A stretch of DNA of 64,000 nt from Candidatus Saccharimonadota bacterium (GCA_046350755.1 JAXLZV010000002.1:19379-83378); one strand, 5' to 3'; shown: positions 47,621 to 53,987, counted from the first letter of the stretch. Made by a program: numbers and translations. Notes: generated by a model from the letters alone, not told the origin.

Positions 47621-47887
47621 CTAAATATTCGCAAATACCGTAACCGTATTGTCTGAAACCCGCAAAATACCGTGCTCAAGTACAAACGTCCGCGTGTCGA
47701 CGCTCGTCAGAATCTTCACTTCGCCGCTGGTTAACAGCGTCATAAAATTCGTGTGATCCGGCAAGACATCGAAGCTCCCGAGCTCGTTCGAAGCCGACAA
47801 AGCCCTGGCCTTACCCTCATACATGACTTCGAAGGGCGAAAAAAGCTTGACCGTCAGCTCGCTGGCACTCTGAAACGGATCGCTCAT
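47621..47887 (-). CDS. atpC: F-type ATPase epsilon subunit (short form: N-terminal beta-sandwich only, 88 aa)
   Basis: Operon position after atpD (4-nt overlap). '[40 protein letters not shown]' matches the epsilon N-terminal domain pattern. Confidence 0.7.
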
Positions 47888-49200
47888 CCAGTCAAAATCT
47901 CCTCAACTCCGGAGAGCATTTTCTCGCGATCGACAAATTGGCCCTTTTGACCGTTCAGGTTTTCAGTCACAAACATCGACTGAGCAAAGTAGCGCTTGAG
48001 TTCTTTGGCCTTGTTATAGGCCTCCCGATCAGCCATCGATAACTCGGCTTCCCCGATGATGGCGATGATATTTTGTAAGCTCTCATACTTTTCCAGGATT
48101 TGCTGCACTTGGCGCGAAAGCAAATAGTGCCGCTCGCCGACAATCTCTGGCGACAAGAGAGAGGAGCGAGTTGCCAAAAGATCGACTGCCGGAAGTATTC
48201 CTGACTCAAATACTTTACGCGACAGCACGATCACACTGTCGAGCTGCTGAGAAATCTCTACCACCGCCGGATCCGACAAGTCATCAGCTGGGATATAGAT
48301 CGATTGCACACTGGTAATCGAGCCGTTTTTTGTCGAGTTGAGCCGCTCTTCCAAACGATGAAGCTCTGAGAACAAAGCCGGTTGGTAACCGCCCTCAGAC
48401 GGCGTCTCGGACAACATAGTGGAAAGCTCGTTATTCGCCTGCACATAGCGATAAATATTATCAACGAAAAACAAGACGTCACTCTTCATCTCATCGCGTA
48501 AATACTCAGCGCTAGCAGCGGCCGTCATACCGACCAACGATCGCATACCGGCGTTTTCATTCATTTGTCCAAGAAACATGACGGTGTTTTTCAGCAGGTC
48601 GGCCTTGAGTAAGGTGTCGCGCAGCTCATGTCCCTCACGAATGCGCTCACCAATGCCGACAAAAAAACTAGTAGCCGCTTTTGAAGACGAAATATTATGT
48701 ATCAGCTCAGTCGTCAACACGGTCTTACCAACACCGGCACCGCCAATAATGCCAATCTTGCGACCCTTCACAAATGGCGCGAAGAAATCTATCACCTTAA
48801 TGCCGGTAACTAAGACATCGGTAGTCGCCGAGCGATAGGTTGGCGGTGGTGTCTCCCGATAAATCGGCACCGCAACTGCAGCTGGAGCGGGCTCTCCATC
48901 AAGCGGTCGCCCGAGAGCGTCAAATACCCGACCAAAAGTCGCCGGTCCCGCTGGCGCTGCCAAGGCGTGTCCGGTAGCTACCACTGACTGACGCACCGCC
49001 ATACCGGAAGCACCAGAGATATTCACATAGCGCGCCGTTTGACGATCGAGATACTCGCGCCATACTAAGATAGCCTCTGGCCGGCCCTGCATTGCTAGCA
49101 CCTCACCTGGTTTAGGCCGTTCATCACCAAAGCGAATCGTGACCACCAGCCCACTCACCGCCAGGATTTGACCACAGATTTTTTCGGTCACCTTAGTCAT
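47884..49200 (-). CDS. atpD: F1 ATPase beta subunit
   Basis: Walker A 'GGAGVGKTV', 'GERIREG', 'DNIYRYVQA' and a DELSMAD-like segment. The length is 438 aa. Confidence 0.9.
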
Positions 49201-50039
49201 CGCGCACCTCGCATAGCGTAAACAATTTCATGGGCCGCCTCATCACGTTCCCGTCGACGCGCTGCTAAATATCGCATACGGGTTTCTTGCTGGGCGTCAG
49301 TCGCCCGCGAATTTGCGGTTAACATAGCCGTAAAGCGAGCTGCAAACTGCGCCAGCTGTGATTCGAATATCAATTGCGTCATGGTAATACTGAGCATAAC
49401 ATTTTCGAGATAGGCTATGACCTCCTCTTGAGTTGGCTCAAATAAATATTCATTGGCAATGATCAAATTTTCCGTTTTTGCCGTACTATCTGGAAGCTCA
49501 CTTTCTATTCGTTGGGTTTCAAGTACTAGCTCAATACGGGCGGGACGCTGTAAGGTTAATGTCTGGAACTCCTGATAATACACATAGGTACGGCGATATT
49601 TTTGGGCGACTTCAACAATCGGACTCGTATCGATTGGCTTGGTGATATCAGGTTGCCCAAAAGCCCGCACCGGTCGAATGCCCCGCACCGACAGCAACGC
49701 TGAACCATGCGCCCCAATGGTGATAATGTCGGTCGTACTAGCGGTATAGTCCTTTACTACCTGCCGAACAATCTGGTCATCGATCTCACCGCTTAAGCCA
49801 CCGGTTGAAGTCAGAACAATGTAGAGATCACGATTAATCGATGGTGAGCGGACGGTATCCTTTTCAACCCGCAAGCCTTGATAGATTGCATACAGCTGCT
49901 GAAAGAATTCCTTCGAGAGTAGCACGCGATCCTTAATCTGCCGAATTCGATAACTGGCAATCCCTTCCAGAGCTTCAGACAACTCACCGATCACTCGATA
50001 CTGCTCGTACTCCTGCTGTAAGTCCTTTAAGCTACTCAT
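49197..50039 (-). CDS. atpG: F1 ATPase gamma subunit
   Basis: Its position between atpA and atpD, with 4-nt overlaps on both sides. It is 280 aa, with a C-terminal '[27 protein letters not shown]' coiled-coil typical of gamma. Confidence 0.7.
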
Positions 50040-52544: not shown

Positions 52545-53381
52545 CTATCTCCCTATTATGATATACGCCACGACAATACTCACCACCATCAGCGCCACAA
52601 CTATTAATATAACCTGGGTTAAACTCCGACGGATCACTCGATGTGAGAGGGGATTACGGCCGAGTGAGTTCATACTGGCGCTAACCGACGAAAACAACAC
52701 AATCCCCGACACCAAGACCGCGATGGCTAACACCATGGCGGCAATCACAGCGTTTGAAGCTGATACCTGCTTCCCCGCAATCTGTCCTCCGAGAGTTTTG
52801 AGGTTTTCCACAAAGGCGTTCTGCAGCCCAGTCGGACCCGACCAGTCGGCAATCTCAATGGTTAACGCCACCTGACCAATCCCAACTTCAGTTGGCTTGC
52901 CCTGCGCATCATTAACGGTCCGTATCTGCGCCCCATTGGTAGACCGCGTGAAGTTGGCCAGCGCCCGGCCAATCACCTTGCCAGAGCCCTTCGCCTTCAT
53001 CGCAAAGCCCTCAATCGGCGAGGCTGTCAGCTGATCGCCAACTGCAATATCACCATTGATTGTCGACACGTTGATCGACACCGCACCACTGGTTGCAACT
53101 TGGACATTCGTACCGCTGCCGCTGGTCGAATAGCTGACAAATGATTCATCTTTAGCCACCACGACACCAGCTAGGGCAGTTCGATTCTGAGGCGTGGCGG
53201 GTACGACCTTCTGACTATCTCCACTATCTCTAGACACCACCGTTCCGGCACTATAATTCTCGTTGGCCGAATAAGATTGCGCAACAACAGCATCAGCCGC
53301 TCGTCCACTCGTTGTCCAAGCGAAAAAGACTACGGCTGCGAGTACTGCCCACAGGGTAAATTTCTGGACTCGACTCCACAT
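52545..53381 (-). CDS. Hypothetical protein in the slot normally occupied by atpE/atpB: signal peptide, ~200 aa Ser/Thr/Gly-rich soluble region, and a C-terminal two-helix membrane hairpin with no membrane-embedded carboxylate
   Basis: Translation was read directly. It is 3 nt from the atpF start. It is not recognisable as an a- or c-subunit. Confidence 0.4.
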   Translation of the reverse strand: MWSRVQKFTLWAVLAAVVFFAWTTSGRAADAVVAQSYSANENYSAGTVVSRDSGDSQKVVPATPQNRTALAGVVVAKDESFVSYSTSGSGTNVQVATSGAVSINVSTINGDIAVGDQLTASPIEGFAMKAKGSGKVIGRALANFTRSTNGAQIRTVNDAQGKPTEVGIGQVALTIEIADWSGPTGLQNAFVENLKTLGGQIAGKQVSASNAVIAAMVLAIAVLVSGIVLFSSVSASMNSLGRNPLSHRVIRRSLTQVILIVVALMVVSIVVAYIIIGR

Positions 53382-53411
53382 AATGCTTATGTTCTATTCT
53401 ACCAGAATAGC

Positions 53412-53987
53412 TTAGCTTGATGGGGTATCGCGATGGCGAAAACGGAAGATAATTTTCTCGACTAAAAAGCCGATACAGCCACCGACCAAGAGCCCGACTA
53501 AAAATTCGGAGCCCGAGAGCCGAAAGCCCATCGCTCGCGCTACCACATAGAGAAACCCGCCAAACAGCAGGCCGCCAATTAATCCGCCCCAGAGAAAACT
53601 TGGTCGATAGATCGTCTCTTCGAGCAATTCACTAACTGCCTCGACAGGTTTAGCGTGAATGAGCCTTGAAAACGTCCGCTGAGCTGGCGACAGCTGGTGT
53701 CGAACTTGAGACATAGTCTTCACAAAAACCGCATCGCGTTCACGTCGCGAGATAACCTTCGGCTCGCCTTTTTCGGCGGGTTGTTCACTGGCTCGCTCCC
53801 GATCACCCGGGCGTGGCTCCTGCTCGGTCGCCTTCAGCTTATCGCGGGCCACTTCGACTGAGTGCTCACGCTCAGCCCGACTCTGCTTCTGCACTTCAGC
53901 CCGCTGCTGATGCTCAGGGTTGAGCTTCAACTTCTCATGACTCGTCGCAGCTGACTTCTCCGGATTATGTGGCTGTTTTTCAACCAT
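53412..53987 (-). CDS. Hypothetical protein: ~110 aa charged/disordered N-terminus plus a Gly-rich two-helix membrane hairpin (GGLIGGLLFGG...FLVGLLVGGCIGFLVEK)
   Basis: Translation was read directly. It overlaps the upstream gene by 8 nt (operon coupling). Confidence 0.4.
   Translation of the reverse strand: MVEKQPHNPEKSAATSHEKLKLNPEHQQRAEVQKQSRAEREHSVEVARDKLKATEQEPRPGDRERASEQPAEKGEPKVISRRERDAVFVKTMSQVRHQLSPAQRTFSRLIHAKPVEAVSELLEETIYRPSFLWGGLIGGLLFGGFLYVVARAMGFRLSGSEFLVGLLVGGCIGFLVEKIIFRFRHRDTPSS

Follow-up and report, generated by a model that had tools for sequence, protein, structure and literature searches.

A set of F-type ATPase genes with no recognizable channel subunit beside them raises the question of what such an enzyme would be coupled to. 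The genes lie in a 64,000-nucleotide stretch of DNA from a Candidatus Saccharimonadota bacterium (GCA_046350755.1, JAXLZV010000002.1:19379-83378), which we call the window and whose positions are counted from its first nucleotide. An earlier note on this DNA had described an operon with atpF, atpH, atpA, atpG, atpD and atpC in which the two upstream slots, normally those of atpB and atpE, hold hairpin membrane proteins unrelated to Fo. Neither upstream gene fits that description: the one at 52545-53381, here named CFUS, is derived from a c subunit, and the one at 53412-53987 belongs to a neighboring module. As judged from the sequences, the operon that starts with CFUS encodes a derived F-type rotary ATPase composed of an alpha3beta3 head, a gamma/epsilon shaft, a delta/b-like stalk and CFUS as the rotor subunit.

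Organization of the operon

Eight consecutive open reading frames (ORFs) occupy positions 47621 to 53987 on the minus strand, exactly where the earlier note had placed them. Seven of these (47621-53381) form the actual unit, an operon with the order CFUS, b-like, delta, alpha, gamma, beta and truncated epsilon. CFUS (52545-53381, 278 amino acids), the first gene, codes for a signal peptide, an ectodomain and a c-subunit-type hairpin, and is separated by 2 nucleotides from the gene for a 206-amino acid b-like peripheral-stalk protein (51922-52542), which consists of a single N-terminal transmembrane helix and a long helical region. These are followed by a 148-amino acid delta/OSCP-like protein (51483-51929; Pfam PF00213, E=6e-7, residues 70-135, C-terminal half only), the alpha subunit (50036-51508, 484-490 amino acids, with a start at 51490 in public gene calls; PF00006, E=3e-59), the gamma subunit or central shaft (49197-50039, 280 amino acids; PF00231, E=6e-28), the catalytic beta subunit (47884-49200, 438 amino acids; PF00006, E=2e-64), and an 88-amino acid epsilon that includes only the N-terminal beta-sandwich (47621-47887; PF02823, E=4e-15, residues 11-87). 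All seven are on the minus strand. The Pfam matches agree with the recognition of atpH, atpA, atpG, atpD and atpC in the earlier note, which was also right about the shortened epsilon and about the sequence GDAKSGKT as the alpha P-loop. Its atpF can be kept on position and architecture but not on sequence, since the match to Pfam ATP-synt_B has an E value of 0.13 and a profile of 33 family members found b subunits in the PDB at E=0.05 or weaker, amid apolipoprotein coiled-coil noise. For the peripheral stalk there is the OSCP match of the delta C-terminal domain at the E value given above, and a b subunit recognized by position and architecture only.

The epsilon/beta, beta/gamma and gamma/alpha junctions are 4-nucleotide overlaps, the delta and b-like genes overlap by 8 nucleotides, and alpha and delta overlap by 8 nucleotides with the publicly called start or by 26 with the longest ORF; the overlaps of 4 to 8 nucleotides reported earlier from epsilon to b hold with the former. 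The spacing of 3 to 8 nucleotides reported for the upstream genes does not hold for 53412-53987, whose distance to CFUS is 30 nucleotides; the b-to-CFUS gap is 2. A promoter and terminator scan found promoter-like sites no more commonly than in shuffled sequence, and its sole terminator yield was a weak hairpin downstream of epsilon (47548-47562).

The c-type hairpin of CFUS

A homology search with CFUS collected 119 proteins of 250-300 amino acids from Saccharibacteria, Parcubacteria and other Patescibacteria. The window protein begins with a signal peptide (residues 1-28, junction SGRA/AD; 53298-53381, minus strand), recognized by a hydrophobic segment at residue 8 and by a helix at residues 4-23 of the AlphaFold 2 model (predicted local distance difference test score, pLDDT, 89.7). 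It ends in two hydrophobic helices (residues 205-278; 52548-52769, minus strand), between which the family alignment shows an invariant G-R-N-P-L; in the window the GRNP loop is located at 52650-52661 (minus strand). When compared with the PDB, the family profile matched solely c subunits, with the whole hairpin in register and the best match to Chloroflexus 9itj_H (E=0.005). Foldseek superimposed the hairpin on c subunits with template modeling scores of 0.85-0.90 and root-mean-square deviations of 1.2-1.5 Å at 23-25% identity. In a Pfam scan of 118 family members, 6 reached E<0.1 individually with ATP-synt_C (best E=8e-4), and the window CFUS, with 12.3 bits, did not reach the gathering score of 24 bits of PF00137. 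The GxGxGxG motif of helix 1 of canonical c subunits is absent from CFUS. The topology, with the fusion at the outward N-terminus and a positive, Arg-rich loop in the cytoplasm, is as in the c-ring. Judged by profile and predicted fold, the hairpin is a genuine homolog or derivative of F-type c subunits. The signal peptide, the ectodomain and the C-terminal hairpin without a membrane carboxylate had all been described correctly in the earlier note; what does not survive is the view that the protein is unrelated to Fo.

The carboxylate of canonical c subunits is located 20 residues after the loop Arg (R+20), a spacing that the ungapped profile alignment confirms. Neither Asp nor Glu occurs at R+20 in any of 343 unique CFUS sequences (0/343), which have Leu, Val, Ile, Ala or Phe there; the window has Val262 (52596-52598, minus strand). 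The loop reads GRNP(L/M) in 330 of the 343. Position R+14, near the cytoplasmic boundary and six residues before R+20, is Gln in 207/343 and Glu in 32/343. These counts indicate that CFUS has lost the ion-binding site and kept the loop that couples the ring to F1.

Divergence and catalytic motifs of the F1 part

The F1 subunits were compared with curated models of known ATPase types, and all scored below the cut-offs. On the canonical equivalog models, alpha reached 335 bits (TIGR00962, cut-off 484), beta 425 (TIGR01039, atpD, cut-off 463), gamma 74 (TIGR01146, cut-off 194) and epsilon 51 (TIGR01216, cut-off 67). With the N-ATPase alt_F1F0 models the scores were 415 bits for beta (cut-off 752) and 303 for alpha (cut-off 750); with the mycoplasma MSC_0618/0619-type (Type 3) models, 245 against 520 and 398 against 570 bits; and with the MMOB1660/MMOB1670 models, 293 against 600 and 351 against 850 bits. 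Because the scores of beta differ little among the canonical, N-ATPase and MSC_0618 beta models, we consider it a separate lineage that is a member of none of them. It also scores well on FliI/SctN models.

In the window, beta has intact Walker A (GGAGVGKT) and GIGERIREG motifs, and the P-loop of alpha and its Arg-finger segment RPAVNVGLSVSRVG are conserved. In related operons (48 beta and 51 alpha sequences), every beta subunit has an intact Walker A motif and 44 of the 48 an intact catalytic-Glu motif; the Arg-finger segment is present in 40/51 alpha subunits. By these motifs the alpha3beta3 head appears to be catalytically intact. Epsilon is about 87 amino acids long across the family and its C-terminal helices are absent, while the DELSEED sequence of beta is replaced by AELSMAD, with most of the acidic residues gone. 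In F1, hydrolysis is inhibited through the C-terminal helices of epsilon and the DELSEED loop. Their loss suggests that the enzyme is an unregulated hydrolase.

Search for an a subunit

No a subunit (PF00119) was found in the operon or in the window, in agreement with the earlier note, which had seen no protein with five or six helices of this kind; the polytopic ORFs of the window encode ferric-reductase-like, PrsW, PAP2 and DUF5684 proteins. PF00119 was likewise found neither in nor beside 76 complete related operons, and about 165 flanking regions contained no a or c gene. The polytopic ORFs near the operons, considered as candidate a subunits, all belong to other families (ZIP, CNNM, EamA, BaxI, MFS, PilD, PrsW and PAP2).

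Conservation and distribution

The nearest relatives of the window in the genome collection are Saccharibacteria metagenome-assembled genomes, and contigs identical to it occur in aquatic metagenomes. A scan of species-representative genomes with a narrow alignment gave 80 loci, almost all from Saccharibacteria; 80 further loci came from metagenomes, scanned with a distant subgroup as the seed. Those with at least 6.5 kb of sequence downstream of CFUS, 61 in the first set and 32 in the second, were taken as informative. Alpha and beta genes are found downstream of CFUS in 44/61 loci of the Saccharibacteria set and in 32/32 of the set from other bacteria within the candidate phyla radiation (CPR), 76/93 in total, and nearly all of the 76 have the order CFUS-(b)-delta-alpha-gamma-beta-epsilon. 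Different genes lie upstream of CFUS, often encoded on the opposite strand, which argues that the operon starts with CFUS. A hidden Markov model search of 1.84 billion cluster representatives (clusters at 50% identity) returned 1,519 CFUS proteins at E<=1e-30, so that the family comprises at least 1,500 clusters; the top 150 matches are almost all full-length, at 250-300 amino acids.

A canonical operon with the order AtpZ-a-c-b-delta-alpha and onward is present in cultivated Saccharibacteria (Southlakia SEML1_0349-0357). Therefore the CFUS operon is a distinct type and not the ordinary ATP synthase of the phylum. In the literature that could be searched, which does not include all journals, no description was found of a c-subunit-ectodomain fusion or of an F1-like ATPase in Patescibacteria/CPR; within that partial coverage the system would be a previously undescribed variant of the F-type/F1-like rotary ATPases.

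Individual loci show other arrangements. A prepilin peptidase gene follows epsilon in locus L125, CFUS is followed directly by epsilon in L160, five small ORFs lie between CFUS and b in L107, and beta and gamma are inverted in L165.

The CFUS ectodomain and the giant fibre-like neighbors

Residues 30-185 of CFUS (52827-53294, minus strand) match beta domains of the phage pre-neck-appendage and cement type. Pfam PF23982 (XM1_gp53/cement families) matches 43/118 family members (best E=1.8e-7), and the best Foldseek match in the PDB is 8hdt_G, the Pam3 cement protein (E=2.4e-4). In BFVD there are 44 matches at E<=1e-3 (best 5e-10, 22-26% identity), which include phage "pre-neck appendage" and tail proteins. 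PHROGs gave no match for CFUS or for the C-termini of the giant proteins described below. From these profile and structure matches, the segment is best described as a putative secreted phage-appendage-type beta domain. The same fold is seen in the C-terminal barrel of phage pre-neck appendages and tail fibres and in capsid cement proteins (PF23982, PF11962, PF22758, 8hdt_G); whereas in phages it forms the end of a fibre or a decoration of the capsid, the CFUS version is fused to a membrane rotor subunit.

Downstream of the operon and on the same strand lie genes for two giant surface proteins. The first (43010-47518, 1502 amino acids) has an N-terminal transmembrane anchor, a Kelch propeller and a C-terminal domain at residues 1402-1489 (43052-43315); the second (38266-43005, 1579 amino acids) is likewise built from an N-terminal transmembrane anchor, a Kelch propeller and a C-terminal domain at residues 1478-1564 (38314-38574), and both include tail-fibre-like repeats. 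Both C-terminal domains are related to the CFUS family (hhalign probability 82%, E=1e-5, and hmmsearch E=2.5e-4 for the first; 83%, 9e-6 and 1.3e-3 for the second), and homologs of the CFUS ectodomain are found in the C-terminal part of giants at other loci, with both clades represented (L091, 3e-16; L094, 2e-18; L102, 2e-16; L017, 1e-13). The giants have an N-terminal transmembrane anchor, fibre-like repeats, and Kelch propellers or tail-fibre chaperone domains. They follow the operon in the window, L013-17, L055 and L076, and in a second clade a divergently oriented giant precedes it. In the syntenic locus L010 both window giants and the ATPase genes are absent together. The ATPase genes and those for the two giants (38266-53381) thus have the character of a 15-kb block inserted between the gene at 53412-53987 and gyrB; at the same site L028 and L032 have another version of the block, consisting of CFUS-alpha-gamma-beta-epsilon and an 803-amino acid protein with a tail-fibre chaperone domain. 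From the shared domain and the block, the giants are suggested, though not shown, to be partners of the CFUS ATPase.

Two further kinds of giant or anchored protein occur at such loci. In CPR other than Saccharibacteria (L102 679-6783, minus strand, and equivalents in L092-L171) the divergently encoded giant begins with two MerR-type helix-turn-helix domains, continues with a transmembrane helix and a huge ectodomain, and has the appearance of a DNA-binding giant tethered to the membrane; between it and CFUS is a Fic/DeoR-like gene for about 315 amino acids. Downstream of the Saccharibacteria operons in L038 (15935-20807) and about 27 similar loci, a 348-amino acid transmembrane-anchored protein with the C-terminal domain of the giants is encoded on the opposite strand. 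Next come three secreted paralogs of about 380 amino acids and another secreted protein, and none of these proteins has a match in Pfam.

A proposed mechanism and its alternatives

The best explanation of the operon, and one that we regard as somewhat more likely than not, is an ion-uncoupled, ATP-driven rotary motor that delivers work to the cell exterior. Such an ATPase would run only as a hydrolase, and ATP hydrolysis would turn gamma-epsilon and a CFUS ring against the stalk-held head. Given the lack of an ion site and of a channel nearby, the torque would not be spent on pumping and would instead be delivered to a ring formed by the ectodomains on the membrane's outer face. This crown would probably act on the co-encoded giant membrane-anchored fibres that end in the same domain, and may assemble, tension or move attachment fibres. 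A more specific idea, which we consider rather doubtful, is that of a transmembrane drive shaft: here, for the first time, a rotary ATPase would yield not ion transport but mechanical rotation or torque of an extracellular protein crown, and episymbiotic CPR bacteria would employ it where there is no ATP, for the assembly, tensioning or movement of giant attachment proteins resembling tail fibres.

The earlier note had left three readings, namely that atpB and atpE are elsewhere in the genome, that Fo is highly divergent, or that an F1-like ATPase works with a partner that is not a canonical proton channel. The third is the best fit among them. The second is right in part, in that the c slot holds a true c derivative, without the ion site and with an ectodomain, and the b-like and delta genes are retained.

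Several points weigh against a rotary motor of this kind. The CFUS ring, its rotation and the ATPase activity are all things that we infer. The b-like protein is assigned as subunit b by its position between c and delta and by its architecture, and its homology is not statistically established; without an a subunit there is no evident membrane partner for this stalk and no evident resistance to the torque on the outside. Both b and delta are absent in L019, L024, L028, L032, L125 and L139, where alpha directly follows CFUS, and this absence fits poorly with sustained rotary torque. Orphan CFUS genes, with no F1 genes next to them, occur in at least 19 species-level loci, so CFUS may also act without this motor. 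The ectodomain family includes self-cleaving chaperone domains, and the fusion might be processed. With respect to the giants, the shared domain is common in giant CPR proteins generally, and ORFs of at least 800 amino acids beside the module showed an odds ratio of 2.1 in one set and no enrichment in the other, with loci that are not independent; for this reason we do not rest the link to the giant proteins on adjacency. Finally, the search of the source genome for a and c genes covered 64 kb, and canonical atpB and atpE genes may lie beyond that span.

In orphan loci, which include L050, L062, L071, L075, L078, L082, L083 and L085, the setting is parA, parB, lepB (signal peptidase I, opposite strand) and CFUS, followed by a same-strand giant ORF of 2,000-3,300 amino acids. 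Some genomes have two orphan copies, for example the complete genome CP025011.1, and many orphan copies have Glu and not Gln at R+14.

Of the rival explanations, a device that is non-rotary or serves export ranks first, an operon split second, an unconventional ion site third and decay last. The first, in our judgment unlikely, is a device without full rotation, either a static CFUS platform in the membrane on which the F1-like head passes on a conformational change or a limited swing, as has been proposed for the gliding motor of Mycoplasma mobile, or an ATPase that exports or assembles the giant fibres in the way of FliI/FliJ at a secretion gate. The operons without b and delta, the orphan CFUS genes beside giants, the scores of beta on FliI/SctN models and the precedent in mycoplasmas (PMC11864180, PMC12994834) all favor it. 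Most operons, however, keep delta, the b-like stalk and a full-length gamma, which are needed only to resist rotary torque. As for export, we know of no case in which the lumen of a c-ring is a protein conduit.

An operon split, in which F1 and the stalk work with a canonical a subunit and c-ring encoded elsewhere as a reversible proton ATPase and CFUS is an accessory or a bystander, is quite improbable. Canonical operons do exist in Saccharibacteria, as in Southlakia, and 64 kb of the source genome were inspected. Yet CFUS is in the exact c slot, 2 nucleotides from b in the window, and the same arrangement without a is found in 76 operons; the roughly 165 flanking regions are empty of a and c genes; and an F1-binding RNP loop that is essentially invariant would be senseless in a bystander. 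Scores of alpha and beta under all curated cut-offs, an epsilon without its C-terminal domain and a degraded DELSEED would agree with a paralogous, specialized system.

A still weaker case can be made for an ion pump or synthase with a non-canonical site, in which the polar R+14 would carry the ion together with a putative channel partner, and we regard it as very unlikely. The frequency of Gln and Glu at R+14 and the reported retention of "ATP synthases" by CPR bacteria (PMC11665869) agree with it, but Gln cannot be protonated or deprotonated, R+14 lies close to the cytoplasmic boundary, at a distance of six residues from the mid-membrane site, and no conserved neighbor of the operon encodes a candidate channel protein. 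That the operon is what a reduced genome has left of an ATP synthase, decaying and without function, is scarcely credible: CPR genomes lose many functions, and 30% of sampled CPR bacteria are without the canonical complex (PMC10656485), but here seven genes are intact and translationally coupled, with catalytic motifs and the RNP loop conserved over more than 1,500 clusters (50% identity) in two distant CPR clades.

Comparison with known systems

Canonical F1Fo enzymes (Southlakia SEML1_0349-0357; Chloroflexus aurantiacus 9itj) share with the CFUS operon the order c-b-delta-alpha-gamma-beta-epsilon, the head with its catalytic motifs, the gamma shaft, a putative delta/b-type stalk, the R-N-P hairpin and the membrane topology. 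The CFUS operon differs in having no a subunit and no AtpZ/AtpI, its c-type protein lacks the Glu/Asp and the GxGxGxG motif and carries a signal peptide and an ectodomain of about 150 amino acids, epsilon is without the C-terminal domain, and alpha, beta and gamma are below the equivalog cut-offs. By the equivalog scores, the c carboxylate and the a subunit, the operon would fall outside the canonical F1Fo enzymes, and it would likewise fall outside the N-ATPases. The latter (atpDCQRBEFAG) illustrate that a second, divergent F-type operon may stand beside the housekeeping one, but they keep a, c with a full Na+ site and AtpQ/AtpR in another gene order, and beta reaches 415 of the 752 bits required. 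Hairpins without the carboxylate are also found inside the rotor rings of V/A-type enzymes and in c1 of Acetobacterium woodii. In those rings only some hairpins lose the site, a is present and ion transport persists, whereas here the loss affects the sole c-type gene and every member of the family.

Mycoplasma F1-like ATPases power cell-surface processes (PMC12994834, PMC11864180). The Type 3 F1-like X0 system (MSC_0618-0624 / MMCAP2_0575-0581), which is needed for MIB-MIP antibody cleavage, is likewise without a recognizable proton channel, and, as the CFUS motor would, it hydrolyzes ATP within the cell for the benefit of a process on the outside. A partner protein in it resembles CFUS in architecture, in that a signal peptide and a large ectodomain precede two transmembrane helices without charge at the C-terminus, although no homology was detected (no NCBIfam match). 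The mycoplasma system has seven genes in another order, no b or delta and a protein with 12 transmembrane helices (PMC3369863), and its hairpin has been reported not to be homologous to Fo; the CFUS operon, in contrast, has b-like and delta genes and no such 12-helix protein, its alpha and beta are below the MSC_0618/0619 cut-offs, and the host phylum differs. The Type 2 or G1-ATPase gliding motor of M. mobile (MMOB1660/1670; 9io5) is also derived from F1 and provides force for a surface machine, but it consists of cytoplasmic dimeric chains with a large N-terminal beta extension and no c-like ring, and the score here is 351 against 850 bits. By analogy, the Type 3 F1-like X0 system and the M. 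mobile gliding ATPase would be the closest functional counterparts of the CFUS operon.

The gene upstream of CFUS and other features of the window

The gene at 53412-53987 (minus strand), here X191, encodes 191 amino acids, overlaps the preceding PKD gene by 8 nucleotides and is not part of the ATPase. Its charged N-terminus of about 110 residues and its Gly-rich hairpin are as the earlier note described them, its membership in the ATPase operon excepted. It has 21 close homologs only and no significant family match, and its AlphaFold 2 model has a pLDDT of 61. In L010 and L011 a type IV coupling protein (T4CP, DUF8128), a PKD protein and X191 are followed directly by gyrB (gyrB-gyrA in a related 701-kb contig) with no ATPase, and most CFUS operons are without X191; we therefore assign it to the upstream T4CP-PKD module. 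Two Fo-related identities were considered for X191 and rejected. As a remnant a subunit it would be expected to keep its Arg, but the sole one near the hairpin (GFRLSGSE) varies to Glu, Gln, Leu, Lys and Ser in homologs. As an AtpZ/AtpI protein it has marginal Pfam matches (ATPase_gene1, 0.038; ATP-synt_I, 0.82; V_ATPase_I, 0.0049) and synteny with T4CP-PKD. The genes of this conserved module (53980-58113, minus strand; 5876-10603 in L010) are translationally coupled and are found both beside the ATPase block and in its absence. They encode a DUF8128 and VirD4/TraG-like coupling ATPase of 832 amino acids, a surface protein of 522 amino acids that has a PKD domain and an LPATG-like anchor at its C-terminus, and X191.

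Elsewhere in the window the rRNA genes are unlinked, with 16S about 20 kb from 23S-5S (loci 5794-9372 and 30110-31636 on the minus strand and 28853-29027 on the plus strand). The 23S match is 3,293 nucleotides long compared with a model of 2,925, probably reflecting an insertion or intron, and genes for tRNA-Ala and tRNA-Ile are located on the opposite strand near 16S and not in a spacer. A 437-amino acid protein (25603-26916, minus strand) with five transmembrane helices and FAD/NAD-binding domains resembles ferric reductases and NOX, which is unexpected in a lineage thought to be without electron transport.

Implications

CPR bacteria have been reported to keep ATP synthases without respiratory chains, and the role of these enzymes has been left open (PMC11665869); Southlakia can even dispense with its canonical enzyme (PMC10633639). 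If the CFUS operon does encode an ion-uncoupled motor, part of the "ATP synthases" of CPR bacteria would not be bioenergetic enzymes. A large F-type family, of at least 1,500 clusters at 50% identity, would have been hidden under the ATP synthase annotation, with an ion-blind rotor, no channel partner nearby and a phage-fibre domain outside, and metabolic reconstructions that count alpha plus beta as an "ATP synthase" will misassign such genomes. The use of F1-like motors to power surface processes would also be extended beyond the mycoplasmas, their sole earlier setting, to a system that keeps most of the classical rotary architecture.

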